This document shows, one piece after another, positions 2,741 to 55,125 of a DNA stretch of 64,000 nt. Source of the DNA: Bacteroidota bacterium. Its GTDB lineage: Bacteria > Bacteroidota > Bacteroidia > Chitinophagales > Saprospiraceae. Both the position numbers and the translations under genes were made by a program. The stretch spans positions 4,814 through 68,813 of the forward strand of contig JANNQA010000042.1 in assembly GCA_031400515.1 (NCBI GenBank). Direction: 5' to 3'. The notes beneath the pieces were generated by a model, which was not told the DNA's origin, ran no database searches, and was given only the letters and a program-made list of their open reading frames with translations. Numbering within the stretch: position 1 is the first letter of the stretch; every line of letters starts with the position of its first letter.

Positions 2741-2922
2741 GGTGTAAGTTGTTTTTAAGTGGCTGGTAAGTTGCTTTTAAGTTGCTTTTAAGTTGCTTGT
2801 AAGTGGCTGGTAAGTGGCTGTTAAGTTGCTTGTAAGTTAGCTGTTAACTGTGCTTGTAAAGTCACTTGTAGTACAAATTTATAAACCTTAAGCCATGCGT
2901 CTTTAGATTGTGCCCGTTCTTT

Positions 2923-3012
2923 CCATTAACCCATTAACCCATTAACCCATTAACCCATTAACCCATTAACCCATTAACCATTAACCCATTAACCCATTAA
3001 CCATTAACCCAT
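2923..3012. repeat. Octamer microsatellite (ccattaac)n, about 11 units
   Basis: Direct reading shows ccattaacccattaaccc... It lies 3' of the minus-strand GNAT gene, so the transcript sense is GGTTAATG. Confidence 0.9.
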
Positions 3013-45102: not shown

Positions 45103-45449
45103 GTCCGTTTGTTTTTTTGGTGTAATGAACAGTTAGAGTAGGTGAGGGGGCAAAAGGTTACAGAAGGCTTGCCCGAATCCGACTTGGTCGGAGGCGGGTG
45201 AGAGAGTGAGAATGTGAGAATGTGAGAAGGTGAGAGAGTGAGAGGAAAGCCAAGTGCAAGTGCAAGCGCAAGTCAAATCTGCAATCCGAGATCCGCAATC
45301 CGAGATCTAGGTACATGCTGATTCCGGTCATTTTCAATCAAAACGTACTTAAACCCAAATGAGCCGTTTGAGACAAATCTGAATGCACCGGAAGGGGGCG
45401 AATCGAGAATCGAGAATAGAAAATCAAGAATTCTATCTTAGCGCCCCTT

Positions 45450-46244
45450 ATGCCGGATGGACAGATGACGAATCAGGCGCTGGGGCATCATATGCCGCAT
45501 ATCCAATTGCTCAGTGAGGCATTTGAGATACCTCAGCTTAAAAAGAACCGGCGAATTTGGGTACTGCTGCCACATGACTATCACACGAGCGACAAGCGCT
45601 ACCCCGTCCTCTACCTCCAGGATGCTCAAAACCTTTTTAATGAATATGCTCCGTTTGGCAACTGGGCCATCGATCGCAGATTGGCTTCCCTGTCCGCGAA
45701 AGGGGCGGGAGATGTCATCGTCATAGCGGTAGATCATGGCGGTACGGAGCGCATTACAGAATATAGTCCTTACTTCCATCGGAAATTTGGCAAAGGGAAA
45801 GGGAAACTCTATGCGAAATTTCTCATCGAAACGCTGAAACCCCACGTCGACAAGACGTTTCGTACGAAGCCAGGCAGGGGGGATACTGGTATTGGCGGCT
45901 CATCAATGGGTGGCCTCATCAGTGCTTATACGGGAATTGTCTACCCTCAGCATTTTAGCAAATTGATGATTTTCAGCCCTTCTTTCTGGTATTCGGATGA
46001 CATTTATTTTGACGCGTTCAACTATAAATACATTCTTCCCATGAAAATTTACCTTTATGCCGGAGAGAATGAGTCGCGCTTTATGACCCAACATATCCAC
46101 CGCTTTAGAGGTGCGGTGAAATCTTCAGTATTCAACAGTCCACTCACGAAATTCAACATCCTGATCAATCCGGATGGAGAGCATAATGAATGGTATTGGG
46201 GTGAAGAATTCGAAAAAGCTGTGCAATGGTTGTACTTTGATTAA
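45450..46244 (+). CDS. Alpha/beta-hydrolase, putative esterase family
   Basis: 264 aa with …YPVLYLQDAQNLF… and the nucleophile motif GGSSMGG. The true start may be an internal Met. Confidence 0.75.
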   Translation: MPDGQMTNQALGHHMPHIQLLSEAFEIPQLKKNRRIWVLLPHDYHTSDKRYPVLYLQDAQNLFNEYAPFGNWAIDRRLASLSAKGAGDVIVIAVDHGGTERITEYSPYFHRKFGKGKGKLYAKFLIETLKPHVDKTFRTKPGRGDTGIGGSSMGGLISAYTGIVYPQHFSKLMIFSPSFWYSDDIYFDAFNYKYILPMKIYLYAGENESRFMTQHIHRFRGAVKSSVFNSPLTKFNILINPDGEHNEWYWGEEFEKAVQWLYFD

Positions 46245-46256
46245 TTGATAGAACAC

Positions 46257-47738
46257 ATGTCACTGAGAATACTCAAGAATATTGATCAAGCGGGACTGGA
46301 AACCGGCTGTGTGATCGTGCCCTGCCGGACCACAGATGATGCTGCACGTGCGCTGATGTTGTTAGGGCTGTCATCAGAGGCTGCAAGATTCTTACAGGAT
46401 TTCGATCCGTCATGTGAAGATGCCGGGAATTTGTATTTGCAAGACAGCAAGTTTGTATTTGTCGGACTCGCAAAGGCGGATACATATGGAAAGAAAAAAC
46501 AAGCACTTCAGGTACTTTCAGGAAAACTGAAAGGAAAAAAATATCACAGTCATATCTTGTTGTTGTCCCACTTGAATGATGATCTTGACTTGGTGAGAGT
46601 ACTTGCTGATGCTTCGGTGAATGGCTTATTGTTGGGTTGCTATGACTACGGTTTGTTGAAGACACATGAAGGAGAAGAACACGAAAAACATGAAGCGAAT
46701 CTGGACGTCATTGTCGGTTCTTTCGATCTCGAAGAAATCATTCACACAGCACAGGAATCGGCAGCTACACAATTGTCGGTGTACAATCTGGTCAATCTGC
46801 CTTCAAGTCATAAGACGCCTGACACTCTCGCAAGATGGGCTGTGAATTCGGCACGGGCACATGGCTATGAAGTTGATGTGTTAGACGAACATGCATTGAG
46901 CTCTCAGGGATTTGCTGCACTCCTTGCGGTAAATCGGGGTAGCGAATATCCTGCACGTCTTATTGTGTGTGAATACAATGGCACTGATGATAAGGATGTG
47001 CCGCTCATAGCGCTTGTTGGCAAAGGAGTCACGTTCGATACAGGCGGTGTAAATGTCAAGCTTGGCGAATCGATGCACCTCATGAAATCTGATATGTGTG
47101 GCGCTGCCGCCGTACTTGGAGCTATTGATCTGCTTGCAAGGCTGAAAGCACCGGTACGCGTGATTGCATGTGCGCCGTGTACAGATAATAATCTCGGTAC
47201 CCGTTCTATCAATCCCGGCGATGTGATCAGTTCATATTCCGGCAAGACCATCGAAGTCATCAATACAGACGCGGAAGGCAGGCTCATCCTTGCCGATGCA
47301 CTTGCTTATGTGGTCAAAAAATTCAATCCTGATGTCGTTGTGGATCTTGCCACACTCACAGGGAGTATCGTTCGTGCACTGGGTAGTTACTGTGCAGGAA
47401 TGTTCACACACTCTGATCAACTTGCGCAGGCGCTTATTGACGCAGGTAATGAAAGCGGTGAGCGTTTGTGGCGCATGCCGTTATGGGATGACTACGCGGA
47501 TGAAATGAAATCCGACATCGCCGACATCAAAAATCTCAGTGACAAACCCGCCGGTGGTAGCATCACCGCTGCAAAATTTCTCGAGCACTTCATCCCTGAT
47601 CATCCCGCCTGGGCACATCTCGACATCGCCGGTGTTGCTTTCAAAGCAAATGGTGTGAGCAAGACGCATGCTGCTACTGCGTATGGTGTGCGGTTGCTTT
47701 ATGAGTTTGTGAGGAAGTACAATAAAGGCGAAGGCTAA
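46257..47738 (+). CDS. pepA: Leucyl aminopeptidase (M17 family)
   Basis: The M17 signature NTDAEGRLILADAL is present, with …VGKGVTFDTGG… The ATG is at 46257, and the tracked ORF begins at a TTG at 46245. Confidence 0.9.
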   Translation: MSLRILKNIDQAGLETGCVIVPCRTTDDAARALMLLGLSSEAARFLQDFDPSCEDAGNLYLQDSKFVFVGLAKADTYGKKKQALQVLSGKLKGKKYHSHILLLSHLNDDLDLVRVLADASVNGLLLGCYDYGLLKTHEGEEHEKHEANLDVIVGSFDLEEIIHTAQESAATQLSVYNLVNLPSSHKTPDTLARWAVNSARAHGYEVDVLDEHALSSQGFAALLAVNRGSEYPARLIVCEYNGTDDKDVPLIALVGKGVTFDTGGVNVKLGESMHLMKSDMCGAAAVLGAIDLLARLKAPVRVIACAPCTDNNLGTRSINPGDVISSYSGKTIEVINTDAEGRLILADALAYVVKKFNPDVVVDLATLTGSIVRALGSYCAGMFTHSDQLAQALIDAGNESGERLWRMPLWDDYADEMKSDIADIKNLSDKPAGGSITAAKFLEHFIPDHPAWAHLDIAGVAFKANGVSKTHAATAYGVRLLYEFVRKYNKGEG

Positions 47739-48020
47739 GGCTAAGGAAGAATAAGAAGAAGTCAAAATGTAAAATAGCAAAGTCTAAAATCCGAAATTGT
47801 TTTTCTTGACTTCTGACTTTTACATTTGTTTCCCGGCTCTGAATTACCAAGATTTGATTTCCCATATCTGAATTGCCACGAGCATAAATTTCCACGAGTT
47901 GAATTGCGACGAGTATGAATTTGCGCGAGCATGAATTGCCACGTGCATGAATTACCAGAGCCTGCATTTCCACGAGCTTTAGCTGCATTTCCATGAGCTT
48001 TAGCTGAATTTCCATGAGCT

Positions 48021-48391
48021 TTAGCTCGTGGTCGTCACCGATCTCTTCAAAGCCAACAACAATCCCAATATATACCCCACAAAAAGCACTCCTTTAATAA
48101 TCGCAACCATCATCGAAGATACAGGCGCCGGATCATCCTGATCCAATCGCTGAAGCTGTCCAAAAAAAAACTCATAAACATCATTCCCGTCGCGGCGCCC
48201 CATGCCGAACAGAGATACGGTTTGCCAATTTCTGCCGATTGATATGTCTTCCATGCGGCGAACAATAAAAACGCTCCCATCAAATAATCATCGAACCAAT
48301 TGATGAAATGGTGTAAGTCAGTCAATTGATGCCACCGTCTGATCGTCTCCAGTATCGGAATGCCGATTCCACCAATAAACCCCAGATACAT
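48021..48391 (-). pseudogene. Small membrane protein gene split by a frameshift at a T9 homopolymer
   Basis: ORFs 48110..48391 and 48021..48254 overlap in different frames. One extra T in the run at 48162-48170 (coding-strand T9) would fuse them into …MMFMSFFFGQLQRLDQDDPAPVSSMMVAIIKGVLFVGYILG…. Confidence 0.55.
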
Positions 48392-48553
48392 GGTAAGGGT
48401 TTAATGGTTATTGTTTAACTGGTTAGGGGTTAAATGTTTATGGATTCACTTAAACGGAGCATGAACAGTTAACCATTAAACAGTTAACCATTAAACCGTT
48501 AACCATTAAACAATATATCTTCTTACCTTTCATCTTCATCAAATGTATCGAAA

Positions 48554-49756
48554 ATGAGCGCAAGTGATTACGGATTTCTCTGTTTGTGCAGCGACTTCAA
48601 GGGCGTAGATTTCATGCGTGCGATTGCGGAACTTGGCCATCGCGTATATCTCATTACTTCGGAAGATCGCAAGGACAGACCATGGCCTTATGATATTCTG
48701 ACAGATGTGTATTATATGCCCGGTCATGATGGGAGACAATGGAATCTTGAGCATCTGGAGCAGGGTGTAGCACATGTCATGCACGCTACGAAAATTGATC
48801 GGGTGATTGCACTGGATGACTATGAAGTACGGAAAGCTGCGATGTTACGTGAGGTGTTCAGGATACCGGGAATGGGTCAGACAACAGCGCGACATTTCCA
48901 TGATAAATTGGCGATGCGTATTCAGGCACGTGATGCAGATATTCCCAATCCGGCATTTACAGCACTGTTCAATGATGCTGTGATCAATGAATTTCTCGAA
49001 AAGAATCCTGGCCCGTGGTTTCTCAAACGCCGTGAAGATGCAGGTGCACTGGGTATCCGCAAAGCCAAAACGCCTGATGAGCTTTGGCAATTATTGCACA
49101 GTTTTGGAGAAAAGCGTCATCACTATCTCGCCGAATGCTATGTAAGTGGTGATGTCTATCATGTCGATTCATTGACACTCAGTGGTAAAATATTATTTAC
49201 GCGTGTTTCTCAATATCTCACACCGCCTTTTGATGTAGCGCATGGTGGAGGTATCTTCCAATCCTGTACACTCGAAATGAAAGATCCAATTCATCGCGAG
49301 TTGGAAGAACTCAATGCGAAGGTGCTTCACGGATTCGGAATGTTGCATGGCGCCTCTCACTCAGAATTTATCCGCGGTAAGGATGGTAAGTATTACTTTC
49401 TTGAAACATCCGCGCGTGTCGGTGGAGCGCATCTTGCCGATATGGTACACGTTGCATCTGGTATCAATCTCTGGCGTGAATGGGCGAAAATCGAATCTGC
49501 TTTGCTCCAGGGTAAAAAGTACTCAATACCCAAAGACGAGAAAAAAATGGCAGGTATCATTACTTCACTGAGCAGGGTAGAGCATCCTGATTACTCTCAA
49601 TTTCGTGATCCGGAAATCTCATGGACACTTGATAGAAAGCATCACATCAGTTTTATTTTTAAGTGCCCCGCTCATAGCCAGGTACAGACTTTGCTGGATA
49701 AATATTGCAACATCATTCGCAACGATTATCACGCGACAGTTCCGTTGAAAGAGTAA
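48554..49756 (+). CDS. ATP-grasp domain protein (carboxylate-amine ligase type)
   Basis: 400 aa with an ATP-grasp core (…PWFLKRREDAGALGIRKAKTPDELW…YLAECYVSGDVYHVDSL…HSEFIRGKDGKYYFLETSARVGGAHL…). Confidence 0.8.
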   Translation: MSASDYGFLCLCSDFKGVDFMRAIAELGHRVYLITSEDRKDRPWPYDILTDVYYMPGHDGRQWNLEHLEQGVAHVMHATKIDRVIALDDYEVRKAAMLREVFRIPGMGQTTARHFHDKLAMRIQARDADIPNPAFTALFNDAVINEFLEKNPGPWFLKRREDAGALGIRKAKTPDELWQLLHSFGEKRHHYLAECYVSGDVYHVDSLTLSGKILFTRVSQYLTPPFDVAHGGGIFQSCTLEMKDPIHRELEELNAKVLHGFGMLHGASHSEFIRGKDGKYYFLETSARVGGAHLADMVHVASGINLWREWAKIESALLQGKKYSIPKDEKKMAGIITSLSRVEHPDYSQFRDPEISWTLDRKHHISFIFKCPAHSQVQTLLDKYCNIIRNDYHATVPLKE

Positions 49757-49925
49757 TTGTTTAGGGTTTAGTGTTTAGGGTTTAATGTTTAGTGTTATCA
49801 CCGCTTACCTTTTTTATGAAAGAATAAATAGCATTGAATAGGGAGCAATAAACAAAATGCAAAACCCCGTTGATCCGTCCTCGACCGCCGAAGCAGGCGA
49901 AGGCGGTTGATCCATTTCCCTTTTT

Positions 49926-50318
49926 ATGAAACAACACATTGCCCGCATATCTCTTGTCGTAGAAGATTACGATGATGCAATAAAATTCTACATAGAAAAA
50001 TTAGATTTTGTTTTGATCGAAGACACTCCATTGAGTGATACAAAACGTTGGGTAGTGGTTTCTCCAAAAGGCTCTTCTGAATGTGCACTTCTCCTTGCAA
50101 AAGCAGCGAACGCTGAACAACAATCGCGGGTCGGAAATCAAACAGGTGGTAGAGTGTTCCTCTTTCTTTACACCGATGATTTCTGGAGAGATTACAATAA
50201 GATGATCGAAAAAGGAATTCACTTTGTTCGTCCGCCAAGTGAAGAAGACTATGGCATCGTCGCGGTCTTTTCAGATCTGTACGGGAATCTCTGGGATTTT
50301 ATACAACCAAGAGGGTGA
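49926..50318 (+). CDS. VOC/glyoxalase-family protein
   Basis: 130 aa (…IARISLVVEDYDDAIKFYIEKLDF…GIVAVFSDLYGNLWDFIQ). Confidence 0.8.
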   Translation: MKQHIARISLVVEDYDDAIKFYIEKLDFVLIEDTPLSDTKRWVVVSPKGSSECALLLAKAANAEQQSRVGNQTGGRVFLFLYTDDFWRDYNKMIEKGIHFVRPPSEEDYGIVAVFSDLYGNLWDFIQPRG

Positions 50319-50368
50319 GAGAGTGAGAATTCTTCGACTGCGCTCAGAATGACAAAGAAGTGAAAGAA

Positions 50369-50574
50369 GTCCTCAGTCCTCAGTCCTCAGTCTTCAGTCC
50401 CCAGTCCTCAATCTCCAGTCCTCAATCTCCAGTCCTCAGTCTCCAGTCCTCAGTCTCCAGTCCTCAGTCTCCAGTCCTCAGTCGCCAGTCCTCAGTCTCC
50501 AGTCCTCAATCTCCAGTCCTCAGTCTCCAGTCCTCAGTCTCCAGTCCTCAGTCGCCAGTCCTCAGTCTCCAGTC
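50369..50574. repeat. Tandem 14-bp repeat (ccagtcctca(g/a)tct), about 14 copies
   Basis: Direct reading gives the repeat. It produces a spurious 80-aa Ser/Pro/Gln ORF with 14-aa periodicity. The same word occurs at 56628-56660. Confidence 0.9.
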
Positions 50575-50577
50575 AAG

Positions 50578-50700
50578 TACAAACACTAAACATAAACCCT
50601 AAAACAATAAACCCTAAACACTAAACCCTAAACAATTAAACCCTAAACAATTAAACACTTAAACACTTAAACACTTAAACATTTAAACCCTAAACACTAC
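50578..50700. repeat. A/C-rich octamer-type repeats (aaacacta / aaccctaa / aaacactt)
   Basis: aaacactaaacataaaccctaaaacaataaaccctaaacactaaaccctaaacaattaaaccc… lies immediately 3' of the minus-strand gene ending at 50697. Confidence 0.85.
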
Positions 50701-51887
50701 TCAAAATACCCAACACTCCCACCAACCCACGTCTTATCCTTATTATACTTCACCCCAATCATTTCGCCTTTACTCAGCCGTGCAAGGTTATTGACGATAC
50801 GCGGGCGAGCAGTACCTTCTTCCCAGATCATCAACATGCGTAACTCGACTTTGGCAGGTTCATCAAGGGTTTGAATTACAGGATGATAATTAACACGCTC
50901 TTGCAAAATGTATTGGCCAGGGTCTGTCACGTGGTCAAGGTCATGCTTGGCGATATGCAGCTTCACACCTGTACCTGAAAATGAATACAGGGGTTTTAAG
51001 ACAAACTGATCCAGATCCGGTGGGATCTCATCCATCTGATTCAGAAACCACGTTCTGGGTGCATATTGACTTGTGATAAAAGGCAGCATAAACTTACTGA
51101 TCCTGAAAAACCAATTTGGATGACCAACCCAATGCACGTCACACTCACGGGTAAACTTAAAACCCGTTTTCAGATCCTTACGATGGATGAATTCGTCATA
51201 GATGACACGGTTGTAAATGCGCTTCACATGTATTTCTTTTCCGTGCTCGTCTTTATAATAGACTTTGTTGTCTCTCTGATAAACTTCTGAGACACAAGCT
51301 ACGTGGATGCCGAGATGATGCCGCGTGGCATGAAAATCAATTTGTGTGTTTTGCTTCCAGGGTTCTATTTCAAGGAGGATCACCTGTTTCGGATCTTCAT
51401 CTCCGACAATCTCACGGCGCAGTAATTCCAAATAACTCTCTTCATTCAGCCCATCACAGAGATGATCCATATCTGATGGGATGTCAAAAAATTTCCGGTA
51501 TGCTTTTGCAGCGAGGTGCTGGTAGTAATACAAAGAAGGAAATCCCTGTGCCTCGATCAGCATAGGCCAGAGTTCACCATTTTCTTTGCGCGTCACTCCA
51601 AAGTCCATGACCATGAACTTGGGATGTTCCGTCTCATTGGGTACTGCATACTTCTTCTGCAAGGAATTTTCCGTCATGGCTTTGTAATCAGGCCGGCAGA
51701 TCACATCGCAGATTTCATCACAAGCCCGAAACAAATGCTCCTTCAGTGCTTTAGGGATAAATACCGGCGTCTCTGCTATGCGGAAATACGGGACATGATT
51801 GTACTCTTTGCCGATATAGTCTAAGAAAGCCTTGTACTTGTCATCTGTGAATGCAGCGTTGTACGCGTGTCGGATGTCAGGAATCAT
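50697..51887 (-). CDS. Glutathionylspermidine-synthase-like / circularly permuted ATP-grasp-type ligase (tentative)
   Basis: 396 aa with segments such as …FMVMDFGVTRKENGELWPMLIEAQGFPSLYYYQ… and …VLKPLYSFSGTGV… that resemble pre-ATP-grasp plus ATP-grasp ligases. This is recognition by eye only. Confidence 0.5.
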   Translation of the reverse strand: MIPDIRHAYNAAFTDDKYKAFLDYIGKEYNHVPYFRIAETPVFIPKALKEHLFRACDEICDVICRPDYKAMTENSLQKKYAVPNETEHPKFMVMDFGVTRKENGELWPMLIEAQGFPSLYYYQHLAAKAYRKFFDIPSDMDHLCDGLNEESYLELLRREIVGDEDPKQVILLEIEPWKQNTQIDFHATRHHLGIHVACVSEVYQRDNKVYYKDEHGKEIHVKRIYNRVIYDEFIHRKDLKTGFKFTRECDVHWVGHPNWFFRISKFMLPFITSQYAPRTWFLNQMDEIPPDLDQFVLKPLYSFSGTGVKLHIAKHDLDHVTDPGQYILQERVNYHPVIQTLDEPAKVELRMLMIWEEGTARPRIVNNLARLSKGEMIGVKYNKDKTWVGGSVGYFE

Positions 51888-52002
51888 TAGCTGCGTTGAA
51901 TAGAAGAGTAATTGAGTGCTAACGTCGAAGAATATAAGTCATGATCATTTCACCAGGAATTGAGAATCTAGAATCGGGAATCGAGAATCAATAGGTCCAA
52001 AC

Positions 52003-52812
52003 TTAACAAAGTGCTTCGACTTGCTGCAGGTTTTCTATTGATTGCCTCAGAAACCTCGGTAGAATGGTGCACTGGGTGAGTCCGAGCTTGTTCGGATCAT
52101 GCAATTCTGCAATCATCCGCACATATTTATCCGGATGCTTAAACTCCAGAATCTCGTCTCGCTTATCGGGTTTTGTGAAATGCTCGAGCATACCAATCGG
52201 TGATGCTTCCGGATGAAATTGCGTGCCAAACCATGTATCTGAAAATCTGATTGCCATCGCAGCCCGATTCCGTGCAACGTGTGGCCGTACTTTTTCAAGA
52301 GCAGTGACCCTCGCACCATATACATCGAGTGAAGACTGTTCTATCTCAGTGACCTGATAATCCCTAAAGTCTCCAACATAGAACGGATCTGGTAAGCCAC
52401 TGAACAAAGGTTCAATCAGTCCGTCTGCGGTCTTGTGGACAGGATATATTCCAAACGAACGCGCATGTCGTTTCGACAGTTTTCCAATACCCCAGTGCCA
52501 GCACAATGTTTGAAAGGAGTGACAGATAAAAAACGCATGCTTCTTTGGCAATGCGCTATCCTGATTCATTTCCCAGAGCGTATCAATAAGATGGAAAAAT
52601 GGAACACCCCATTCAGGATCTATGTCGCGTGGATCACCAGGGCCGCCTGAAAAAATATAGAGGTCAAAACTTGTATCTGGCACCATCTTTCCCGCACGTA
52701 CATCAAATACTTTAGCAGTGAGTTCAGGAAAAGCCTTGACAAGGTTCTTGAGATACGTCATGCCCAGATTTGGAGAACCGTTGTAGAGGTCGAGTATTGC
52801 AGTACGAAACAT
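52003..52812 (-). CDS. Class-I glutamine amidotransferase-like protein with an intact Cys-His-Glu triad
   Basis: I start the gene at the Met at 52812 (MFRTAILDLYNG…). The nucleophile elbow is FFICHSFQ, and the His/Glu lie in FGTQFHPE. Confidence 0.75.
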   Translation of the reverse strand: MFRTAILDLYNGSPNLGMTYLKNLVKAFPELTAKVFDVRAGKMVPDTSFDLYIFSGGPGDPRDIDPEWGVPFFHLIDTLWEMNQDSALPKKHAFFICHSFQTLCWHWGIGKLSKRHARSFGIYPVHKTADGLIEPLFSGLPDPFYVGDFRDYQVTEIEQSSLDVYGARVTALEKVRPHVARNRAAMAIRFSDTWFGTQFHPEASPIGMLEHFTKPDKRDEILEFKHPDKYVRMIAELHDPNKLGLTQCTILPRFLRQSIENLQQVEALC

Positions 52813-52822
52813 GAAACGTGGA

Positions 52823-53761
52823 TCAGTGTTGAGCACTAACAAACTCACCCCAGGTAATGTTCAATTTTCCAGTTTTATGCTTCAAAGCACGCTCGATAGC
52901 CATTTCCGCCGCGTTCTGTACGATCCAGCCAAAATTCTCTTCGCCCACACTATCTACTGCTGCATCAGGAGCAGGATTACAAAAATCAATCGCATAGGGT
53001 ATACCATCCTGTACCGCAAATTCCACCGTATTGAAGTCATATCCTAATGCATGATTGAGACTTAGCACCCCTTCATGAACTTTCTTCACGATCGGATCTT
53101 TCATACTCGCTGTCTCTCTTACGTAGCGCAGATGATGTGGATTACGTGGTTCGTATGGCATGATATGTACACGGTCTCCATGGAGATAATAACATCTGAA
53201 GTACCTGTCAAAGTCAACTGCTTTTTGGAGCAACATCACAAGTTTTCCTGTCTCATGATAGGCTTTAAACAATTCGTTAGTGTCGTTGACTTTGTAGACG
53301 CTCTTCCAACCACCTCCTGAATGCGGTTTCATGTACAATGGAAATCCTCCGAGGTATGCAATGATTTTTTCCCAATCCATCCATTTCAGATTTGAGAATG
53401 ATTCAGGGGATGTGTCATCGGGCCTCTCAAACGATGGCAGGAGCACTGTATTAGGTACAGCAACATTGACAGACAACGCGAGACTATTGTTAAAAAACTT
53501 TTCGTCAGCACTCCACCAGAAGGGATTGTTCATGACTGCGGTACCTGTGATGGCGGCATTTTTCAGGTAAGCCCTGTAGAAGGGGACATCCTGAGATATG
53601 CGATCAATGAGTACTGCGTAAGGCGTTGCTTTGCCCTGCACCACTTCATCTACCTGTGCAAGTTCCGCCGACACACCTTTCGGCGCGATCGCATTGACTC
53701 TGTCAACAAAAGCCTGCGGAAAGGAACGTTCCTTGCCAAAAAGAATTCCGATTTTCTTCAT
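52823..53761 (-). CDS. RimK/glutathione-synthetase-like ATP-grasp protein
   Basis: 312 aa (…FPLYMKPHSGGGWKSVYKVNDTNELF…VMLLQKAVDFDRYFRCYYL…YAIDFCNPAPD…). It lies 10 nt upstream of the GATase-like gene. Confidence 0.7.
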   Translation of the reverse strand: MKKIGILFGKERSFPQAFVDRVNAIAPKGVSAELAQVDEVVQGKATPYAVLIDRISQDVPFYRAYLKNAAITGTAVMNNPFWWSADEKFFNNSLALSVNVAVPNTVLLPSFERPDDTSPESFSNLKWMDWEKIIAYLGGFPLYMKPHSGGGWKSVYKVNDTNELFKAYHETGKLVMLLQKAVDFDRYFRCYYLHGDRVHIMPYEPRNPHHLRYVRETASMKDPIVKKVHEGVLSLNHALGYDFNTVEFAVQDGIPYAIDFCNPAPDAAVDSVGEENFGWIVQNAAEMAIERALKHKTGKLNITWGEFVSAQH

Positions 53762-54111: not shown

Positions 54112-55125
54112 TCAGGCAAAGTTGAAATGTCTATTTGGATCTGATGCGAGCCTGATATTGAGATACAAATCTTTCCATGTGCATCCACGAGCAGAAATTC
54201 TCGTATGGAGTAGCTCGATGGATTGAACGAAGATGTCGATCATCCCTTTGGAAGGATTCGGCCAAATGGATACGTTGTCGATATCATAGCATTGCTGAAG
54301 GATAGCAACATCAGACAATTCATTCGCGCCCTCACTGTATTGTGTGTGCAGTCTGTAATAATGTGTACCAGATGCAATATTCTGATGCATGAAATCTCCT
54401 CTGTCAAAATCCGGACCTGTTGGTTGGCATTCGGACATGACAGACCAATCCTGTGCATTCATAGAATGTTGAAGGGCAATGATCCGGATAGATTCATCAT
54501 GTACAGCTTTCCAACTAATACTGGCTCCATTTTCAATTTGACTTGCTTGAAATGAGAGCAGTTCGAGTGGCATCAATCCACAACCGTTCAGGCTATTTGT
54601 ACCACATGGCATGCTTGGAATATCCTGAGGAACCCAATCACTCGAGCTATTGCCACTTCCATCATATTCCAGGGAAACACAGTCATCCCATGCCGGAACG
54701 AAATCATTGTTTGTCCAAATCCCTTCGCATTCAGCGACGCTTGATCTCGTGTGTCTATGAGAGCCCCATTCAACATAGTCAATCATATTGTTCGTGCTTG
54801 CATTGACACAGAATGGAAAATTCGAAGTTGTATACAAAGCAAGCTCATCATCTGCTGCATCCAAAGAATAGTTGAGATCCACCGTGACAAGCGCTCCTGC
54901 TTCAAGGAGTAGAGCTCCGCCGCAAATGACAGGAATAGTTGATAGTTGATTGTAGTCTGGAAAGCGACAGAGCCAGTACGTACCGATATTTACCGGGGAA
55001 GTGCCGGTGTTTCTGATTTCGACATGAGAATTTGAAGCCTGGATCTCGTTGATGACAATCTGGCTTTGTACTGAAGTTGAACAAGCAAGAAAAAGGGTGA
55101 AAAAGAATCCATAAAAATGTTTCAT
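54112..55125 (-). CDS. Secreted lamin-tail-domain (LTD) protein with a T9SS-type C-terminal domain
   Basis: 337 aa with a signal peptide, an LTD pattern (IVINEIQASNSHVEIRNTGTSPVNIGTYWL…) and a CTD-like …VSIWPNPSKGMIDIFV…. Confidence 0.65.
   Translation of the reverse strand: MKHFYGFFFTLFLACSTSVQSQIVINEIQASNSHVEIRNTGTSPVNIGTYWLCRFPDYNQLSTIPVICGGALLLEAGALVTVDLNYSLDAADDELALYTTSNFPFCVNASTNNMIDYVEWGSHRHTRSSVAECEGIWTNNDFVPAWDDCVSLEYDGSGNSSSDWVPQDIPSMPCGTNSLNGCGLMPLELLSFQASQIENGASISWKAVHDESIRIIALQHSMNAQDWSVMSECQPTGPDFDRGDFMHQNIASGTHYYRLHTQYSEGANELSDVAILQQCYDIDNVSIWPNPSKGMIDIFVQSIELLHTRISARGCTWKDLYLNIRLASDPNRHFNFA

Follow-up and report, generated by a model that had tools for sequence, protein, structure and literature searches.

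Glutathione synthesis and turnover run from GshA or GCS2 and glutathione synthetase to a GGP1-type peptidase and an M17 Cys-Gly dipeptidase. In Escherichia coli, Gss carries a synthetase of the permuted ATP-grasp fold with a fused CHAP amidase. Amine catabolism by gamma-glutamylation (PuuA/PuuD type) pairs a carboxylate-amine ligase with a gamma-glutamyl hydrolase of the class-I glutamine amidotransferase (GATase) fold. The stand-alone class-I GATase-fold protein GGP1 of plants hydrolyses the gamma-Glu bond of glutathione, giving Glu and Cys-Gly (PMC9804317, PMC12958103). According to work cited in PMC12568646, YgiC and YjfC are peptide-spermidine ligases, and their RefSeq product name says the same. 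Here, we analyse a stretch of 64,000 nucleotides (the window) from a Saprospiraceae genome (Bacteroidota bacterium, GenBank assembly GCA_031400515.1, contig JANNQA010000042.1, positions 4,814 to 68,813 of the forward strand). An original prediction had pointed there to three ATP-grasp-type ligases and an intact class-I amidotransferase-like enzyme, a description that proved correct from fold models, motifs and a match to RizA. A self-contained cluster of ligases and hydrolases occurs across Bacteroidota, and six of its eight genes lie in the window.

A conserved cluster of ligase and hydrolase genes

The genes of the locus lie at the following window positions.

45450-46244, plus strand: EST264, alpha/beta-hydrolase gene (PF00756), 264 aa
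46245-47738, plus strand: M17 leucyl aminopeptidase gene (PF00883), the ATG at 46257 being possibly the true start
48554-49756, plus strand: LAL400, predicted ATP-grasp gene, 400 aa
49926-50318, plus strand: VOC gene (PF00903 in Pfam), 130 aa
50697-51887, minus strand: GSP396, predicted permuted ATP-grasp gene, 396 aa
52003-52812, minus strand: GAT269, class-I GATase gene, 269 aa, with an ATG start that matches the N-termini of homologues
52823-53761, minus strand: AG312, predicted ATP-grasp gene, 312 aa, as in the list of open reading frames (ORFs)

All genes named in the original prediction were found in the ORF list where it had placed them, with the expected spacings of 10 nt from the AG312 stop codon to the GAT269 ATG and of 115 nt between GAT269 and GSP396. 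A longer GAT269 ORF could alternatively start from a GTG at 52848. EST264 and the M17 gene abut (0 nt), and LAL400 and the VOC gene converge on the AG312/GAT269/GSP396 strand group. The spacing between M17 and LAL400 is 815 nt in the window (47739-48553), where it holds a 93-aa ORF and repeat arrays; in Flavobacteriaceae it is 39 nt.

The arrangement was followed in 80 loci from a genome scan, which come from Saprospiraceae, Flavobacteriaceae (Gelidibacter, Winogradskyella, Polaribacter and others), Cyclobacteriaceae, Ohtaekwangia and Sphingobacteriales. Gene positions were counted by tblastn with the window proteins, restricted to loci with enough flanking sequence. In 76 of 77 loci GAT269 immediately precedes GSP396; measured from where the tblastn match ends, the median gap is 26 nt, and in one locus (L079) the two genes overlap. 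AG312 is found upstream of GSP396 in 69/73 loci. Downstream and in convergent orientation are LAL400 (52/62 loci), the M17 gene, placed between the esterase and LAL400 (50/62), and the esterase EST264 (49/62). Thus, the connection of the esterase and the aminopeptidase with the ligases, which had been offered as speculation, is backed by synteny. In none of the 62 comparable loci was the VOC gene found at any position. Wedged between two convergent operons, it has the look of a lineage-specific insertion, and a role as a glyoxalase-type member of a thiol pathway was rejected on the same count. The original prediction was right about the converging positions of the VOC and 400-aa genes; VOC is not a member of the conserved unit.

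Unsupervised clustering of all 1120 ORFs of the 80 loci gave exactly eight recurrent families: GSP396 (79 loci), GAT (74), AG312 (70), a second esterase (58), GCS2 (58), LAL400 (57), M17 (56) and the esterase (56). The ninth-ranked family, fumarase, is present in 19/80. Two of the eight are additional to the six of the window: a YbdK-type GCS2 carboxylate-amine ligase (PF04107, E=3e-65; NF010039, 536 bits for a cut-off of 371; PDB 1r8g, E=3e-51) and a second alpha/beta-hydrolase of PF00756 type. The predicted linkage of the genes holds, but the conserved unit is larger, comprising eight families with VOC left out. In Winogradskyella sp. HB-48 (L041), the eight genes are split between two convergent operons whose gaps measure 3-64 nt, too little to accommodate a precursor peptide. 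In the census of the 80 loci, the conserved set contains no gene for a transporter, a regulator or a precursor peptide; among ORFs of at least 90 aa no ninth family recurs, shorter ones being judged from the L041 gaps only. A graspetide or other system for ribosomally synthesised and post-translationally modified peptides was rejected, since no conserved precursor ORF was found.

The recurrence of the same neighbours in most of the 80 loci, across several Bacteroidota orders, is far beyond chance. By tblastn, the identity of AG312 reaches 77-89% for the three closest loci and is 60-69% for the majority of the loci from Saprospiraceae and Flavobacteriaceae. In L002, AG312 and GSP396 are 86% and 79% identical to their window counterparts, against 71% for the adjoining SucB; on these comparisons, the cluster proteins appear conserved at least as well as this neighbouring enzyme of the tricarboxylic acid cycle, which points to strong purifying selection. 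AG312, GAT269 and GSP396 each have at least about 8000 homologue clusters at 90% identity, and the named sources are mostly Saprospiraceae or Bacteroidota. Homologues of GSP396 and AG312 are unnamed or 'hypothetical', save for generic JGI labels (glutathionylspermidine synthase; glutathione synthase/RimK-type ligase), and those of GAT269 carry the generic annotations GMP synthase or type-1 glutamine amidotransferase.

Fold classes and catalytic residues of the cluster proteins

Since Pfam gave almost nothing for AG312 and GSP396, both proteins were modelled with AlphaFold2 from homologue alignments. The GSP396 model has a predicted local distance difference test (pLDDT) score of 92 and a predicted template-modelling (TM) score of 0.91. 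Its Foldseek matches belong only to the permuted ATP-grasp class (E 1e-14 to 2e-9, probability 1.0, TM 0.5-0.64) and comprise 3n6x, the human, soybean and potato glutathione synthetases, YgiC/YjfC, GspS and the fungal ligase Cp1B (PDB entries 3n6x, 2hgs, 3kaj, 7uk8, 7uk6, 2io7 and 9cjn). The GSP396 segment VLKPLYSFSGTGV aligns with YVVKPIFSREGANV of YgiC, and the invariant 'VLKPLYSFSGxGV' with VVKPIFSREGANV of the same protein. At the level of sequence profiles, no Pfam or NCBIfam model is above threshold; the best Pfam match is GSP_synth (PF03738; E=0.009, 15.7 bits for a gathering threshold of 29.3), YgiC appears at E=0.25 in a PDB profile search, and the hhalign probability with E. coli YgiC is 18%. 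These comparisons are of low probability, and membership of the YgiC family cannot be claimed. From its modelled fold, we assign GSP396 to the circularly permuted ATP-grasp ligases of the glutathione-synthetase/GspS/YgiC class, in a family without a name. The 396-aa protein is thus a ligase by fold, as had been predicted.

For AG312 (pLDDT 85), the model and the Foldseek results show the three-domain ATP-grasp fold; the PDB matches are Ddl, RimK, LysX/ArgX and graspetide cyclases, at probability 1.0 and TM 0.6-0.75. The segments PLYMKPHSGGGW and 'VEFAV...AIDFCN' align with the ATP-loop and Mg-site motifs of Ddl. K145, G149-G151, E247, D259 and N262, corresponding to the ATP-binding Lys, the Gly-rich loop and the Mg2+ ligands, are invariant in 38 homologues. 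AG312 reaches the threshold of no family in Pfam or NCBIfam, the best Pfam match being R2K_2 at E=0.01. The NCBIfam RimK model TIGR00768 does not match the window protein; it matches the Winogradskyella orthologue as rimK_fam with E=2e-8, at 33.9 bits for a cut-off of 143.4. In hhalign, the probability is 26% with E. coli RimK and 1.8% with GshB; neither PF02951 nor PF02955 matches AG312 in Pfam, and GshB is not among the top 50 Foldseek matches. By its model, AG312 is a carboxylate-amine ligase of the classical ATP-grasp type, closest to Ddl, RimK and LysX/ArgX, in a family that has no name. The label 'RimK/GshB-like' used in the original prediction is appropriate for the superfamily but not for the family, and RimK or GshB membership cannot be claimed from profile comparisons of such low probability.

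The AG312 orthologues of Winogradskyella, Polaribacter, Psychroserpens and others carry C-terminal tails of 30-150 aa, rich in Lys, Ala, Pro and Thr and histone-H1-like (L041 4763-6004; also in L040, L043, L064 and L073). In some of them a helix-hairpin-helix (HhH) domain follows the tail (PF14520, E=1e-5, 26 bits for a 27-bit cut-off). The window protein has no tail, and the tails are lineage-specific among orthologues.

LAL400 has no Pfam match, and its NCBIfam matches to the ATP-grasp models PRK02186/PRK07206 (about 3e-10) are below threshold. In a phmmer search against PDB, it matches RizA (4wd3) over the catalytic region with E=2e-18 and BL00235 (3vot) with E=5e-4, and the Winogradskyella orthologue passes Pfam ATP-grasp_4. 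LAL400 thus appears to be a classical ATP-grasp enzyme resembling L-amino-acid ligases, for which a dipeptide product is predicted. The ligase identity of the three proteins, which follows from the AlphaFold2 and Foldseek results, the motif alignments with Ddl and YgiC and the RizA match, stands as predicted; the strength of the curated-library matches is weaker than had been implied (R2K_2 at 0.01, GSP_synth at 0.009, none for LAL400). AG312 and GSP396 are new families, without a curated model, within known superfamilies.

GAT269 passes the Pfam model PF00117 (37.1 bits for a cut-off of 22.8). The predicted motifs FICHSFQ and QFHPE are both in place, and the C97, H200 and E202 triad and the GGPG oxyanion motif are invariant in 36 homologues, as are the intact GGPG/CxxxQ glutamine-site motifs. 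The family has its own conserved C-terminal extension. Its sole PDB profile match is the uncharacterised 3l7n (E=4e-4), the PDB profile searches of GSP396 and GAT269 giving no useful sequence-level relative, and the closest named models are stand-alone COG0518-type proteins. GAT269 is a stand-alone class-I GATase-fold protein that may act as a gamma-glutamyl-type hydrolase or as an amide donor; a coupled glutaminase and a free gamma-glutamyl hydrolase are not told apart by sequence motifs.

The M17 aminopeptidase matches PF00883 with E=5e-116, and the NCBIfam leucyl aminopeptidase models with E=2e-125 at 419.5 bits, below the curated threshold of 552 bits. EST264 (PF00756, E=1.6e-24, 87.5 bits for a cut-off of 22) has the GxSxG motif 'GGSSMGG' and matches CE1 and ferulic esterases and IroE/BES-like hydrolases in PDB. 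It would be a cytoplasmic enzyme resembling siderophore, feruloyl and S-formylglutathione esterases. A siderophore reading, prompted by the IroE/BES-like matches, is unsupported, as no conserved receptor or transporter gene was found.

More than 8000 homologues of GSP396 (at 90% clustering) lack a Pfam domain, and a search with a hidden Markov model of the family recovered 328 representatives at E<1e-30 and 1581 at E<1e-3. In Ca. Thermochlorobacter, a ligase of this family is fused to a Na+/solute symporter (PF00474) in an 870-aa protein (L082 8001-10613), with no other cluster gene nearby; the sequence cluster of the fusion has a second 870-aa member on five contigs. Relatives also occur as tandem paralogues in an Elusimicrobia metagenome-assembled genome (L083 5187-8737) and on one other contig. 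Outside the Bacteroidota loci, a YbdK-type GCS2 lies directly upstream of a distant relative (L088/L089 pair); its identity to the GCS2 of the flavobacterial cluster is 33% (E=7e-78). For a second such pairing, with a 531-aa gene upstream of P0501 (L092), the precomputed Pfam label 'GCS2' was not reproduced by hmmscan or BLASTP, and the L088/L089 pair alone is taken as solid. One distant relative adjoins a gene of the histone-deacetylase/acetylpolyamine-amidohydrolase family (Hist_deacetyl), and another adjoins the gene of a 992-aa protein with a spermine/spermidine-synthase domain (Spermine_synth). Some distant relatives (L083; P0387, P0398 and P0429) have an N-terminal signal-peptide-like or anchor segment and an Ala-rich region of about 150 aa, an odd feature for an ATP-dependent ligase.

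Proposed function of the cluster and its alternatives

The most likely function, to which we give a probability of about 0.5, is the stepwise ATP-dependent assembly, from free amino acids or amines, and the recycling of a small cytoplasmic peptide or peptidyl-amine, probably of gamma-glutamyl type. Beyond the observed gene set, folds, catalytic residues and synteny and the lack of conserved precursor or transporter genes, we infer the order of steps, the substrates, a hydrolase role for GAT269 and the nature of the product as follows. LAL400 would form an alpha-dipeptide, AG312 would extend a carboxylate, and GSP396 would couple an amino acid or polyamine to the carboxylate of a peptide, in the manner of glutathione synthetase, GspS and YgiC. 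The YbdK/GCS2 ligase of most other lineages would provide a gamma-glutamyl-type bond. For recycling, GAT269 would use its Cys-His-Glu triad to hydrolyse a gamma-glutamyl-type bond, the M17 enzyme would cleave di- or oligopeptides, and the alpha/beta-hydrolase or hydrolases would act on a remaining ester, thioester or amide bond. A small-molecule substrate is suggested by the presence of LAL- and YbdK-type ligases, which use free amino acids, by the symporter fusion of the GSP396 family and by the activity of M17 enzymes on short peptides. The pairing of GCS2 with GSP396 in and beyond the Bacteroidota loci, the fold of GSP396 and the precedent of GGP1 argue for a gamma-glutamyl, glutathione-like logic.

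The near-universal GAT269-GSP396 pair finds its closest working analogy in the synthetase-amidase pairing of Gss: GSP396 shares the permuted ATP-grasp fold and the K-P-x-x-S-x-x-G-x-x-V loop with Gss, YgiC and YjfC, and a ligase is paired with a cysteine-nucleophile hydrolase. However, the sequence similarity with Gss/YgiC is at noise level (15.7 for 29.3 bits; hhalign 18%), and the partner in the cluster is a separate GATase1-fold protein and not a CHAP amidase. As in glutathione synthesis and turnover, a YbdK/GCS2 ligase (in most lineages), a ligase of glutathione-synthetase fold, a class-I GATase-fold hydrolase and an M17 aminopeptidase, itself a type of enzyme that hydrolyses Cys-Gly, co-occur, and the GCS2-GSP396 pairing is also seen outside the Bacteroidota loci. 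Yet no cluster member passes a glutathione-specific model, the window has no GCS2, and nothing in the glutathione pathway corresponds to the two additional ATP-grasp ligases or to the esterases. LAL400 recalls RizA, BL00235 and BacD through its RizA match (E=2e-18, catalytic region) but is found phylum-wide alongside peptidases and not in an antibiotic cluster. Like PuuA/PuuD, the locus combines a carboxylate-amine ligase with a GATase1-fold gamma-glutamyl hydrolase candidate; its ligases are of ATP-grasp or GCS2 type and not of glutamine-synthetase type, and the conserved set lacks oxidase, dehydrogenase and transaminase. A Puu-type gamma-glutamylation catabolism is not supported, no oxidase or dehydrogenase being among the conserved families.

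In a literature search for the gene combination, whose coverage did not extend to the amidoligase survey of Iyer et al. 2009, no paper on the cluster was found; this survey of amidoligases and their gene neighbourhoods would be the likeliest place for a prior mention. The components come from known superfamilies, and the eight-gene combination has no matching characterised pathway in that search. The original prediction of a cluster that makes and trims a small peptide, polyamine-amide or protein tag is thus partly supported, and none of the three findings it had named as counting against it was obtained: the fold of GSP396 is that of a ligase, the genes recur together in most of the 80 loci, and no described pathway matched.

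Several points weigh against a small gamma-glutamyl-type product. Similarity to GSP396 was the criterion for selecting the 80 loci, and Flavobacteriaceae dominate among them. Neither the GCS2 ligase nor the second esterase is found anywhere in the 64-kb window, so that the gamma-glutamyl step in the window genome is conjectural. AG312 and GSP396 are under every curated family threshold and align weakly to RimK, GshB and YgiC, whose specificity is therefore not transferable to them. In the Cytophagales and Sphingobacteriales loci, the AG312/GCS2/GAT/GSP396 half of the cluster, or part of it, alone adjoins GSP396, and the LAL400-M17-esterase operon is not beside it. The link to polyamines is weak, coming from the two neighbourhoods of distant GSP396 relatives. 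Moreover, the tails and HhH domains of some AG312 orthologues suggest a macromolecular target, which they fit better than a small molecule.

This last point belongs to an explanation that we consider unlikely but that deserves attention, a reversible (C-terminal) tagging of proteins. AG312 would attach amino acids to a protein whose gene lies elsewhere, the tag being extended or capped by the other ligases and removed by the hydrolases. RimK, the poly-alpha-glutamate ligase of ribosomal protein S6 (RpsF), and LysX/ArgX, whose target is LysW, are among the nearest solved structures to AG312, and rimK_fam is the weak best family match, seen in the Winogradskyella orthologue; the nucleic-acid-binding-type tails and HhH domains on many orthologues suggest contact with nucleic acid or the ribosome, the sequences are very highly conserved, and no substrate gene lies within the cluster. 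However, that same rimK_fam score is far from the family cut-off, the alignment with RimK remains at an hhalign probability of 26%, and no carrier or target gene, S6-like or LysW-like, is conserved nearby. The tails are restricted to certain lineages and missing from the window protein, and the LAL-like, YbdK-like and M17 partners as well as the GSP396-symporter fusion point to free small substrates.

An equally low probability is given to a glutamine-dependent amidoligase, in which GAT269 would be a glutaminase feeding ammonia to GSP396 or AG312, and a carboxylate of the product would become a carboxamide. Glutaminase-synthase pairs of this sort include CarA, which feeds CarB, and GatD, which feeds MurT. 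The intact and invariant triad and GGPG/CxxxQ motifs of GAT269 would suit such a role, as would its place immediately upstream of GSP396 (76/77 loci, median gap of 26 nt, overlap in L079) and 10 nt from AG312 in the window, and its conserved C-terminal extension could serve as a docking surface. On the other hand, its closest named models are stand-alone proteins, characterised stand-alone relatives such as GGP1 are hydrolases, and the three further hydrolases of the cluster suit a degradative role. To our knowledge, no ATP-grasp enzyme of the RimK/Ddl or GspS/glutathione-synthetase class receives channelled ammonia, which counts against this explanation. Finally, a chance juxtaposition of unrelated housekeeping genes is very improbable, for although M17 aminopeptidases and esterases are common housekeeping enzymes and the two halves of the cluster lie apart in some orders, eight families stay together with tight, operon-like spacing across Flavobacteriales and Saprospiraceae while all flanking genes change, and the next family falls to 19/80 loci.

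Within the preferred explanation, assembly and recycling of a small peptide or peptidyl-amine, a more specific version is quite doubtful. The product would be a Bacteroidota-wide metabolite yet to be described, a gamma-glutamyl peptide coupled with an amine or polyamine, which would be a functional analogue of glutathionylspermidine or trypanothione, perhaps a thiol of low molecular weight, with its own gamma-glutamyl peptidase, dipeptidase and (thio)esterase. That it is a thiol is pure conjecture.

Surroundings of the cluster and its meaning for Bacteroidota

Further features around the cluster genes are the following.

48110-48391, minus strand: hydrophobic ORF of 93 aa, no family match
54112-55125, minus strand: gene just upstream of AG312 for a 337-aa protein with a signal peptide and a lamin-tail domain
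45197-45431, 47824-48026, 48390-48512, 49758-49796, 50374-50699 and 51957-51989, also 664-1152 and 2743-3012: spacers with tandem repeats

The lamin-tail match of the 337-aa protein (PF00932, E=8e-6) is under the cut-off, and the gene is kept solely in the closest relative (L001). Short tandem repeats with periods of 7-61 nt fill almost every spacer around the cluster. One example is CAGTCCTCAGTCTC, repeated 14.4 times at 50374-50574, and the unit GAATCGA is common to two different spacers. The arrays give rise to spurious ORFs, such as 50360-50602, and are probably a genome-wide trait of this Saprospiraceae genome. An Rfam scan of the whole window at gathering thresholds gave no match and hence no riboswitch clue, and the counts of a promoter and terminator scan were not above shuffled expectation.

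In oceans, soils, sludge and guts, Bacteroidota form a dominant phylum. Three to four ligases and three to four hydrolases are kept together in the cluster, and their families comprise thousands of sequence clusters. This conserved combination implies an abundant, undescribed peptide-like metabolite or modification. The product could be a new cofactor, osmolyte, polyamine conjugate or redox buffer, and its identification would assign a function to several large families of hypothetical proteins.

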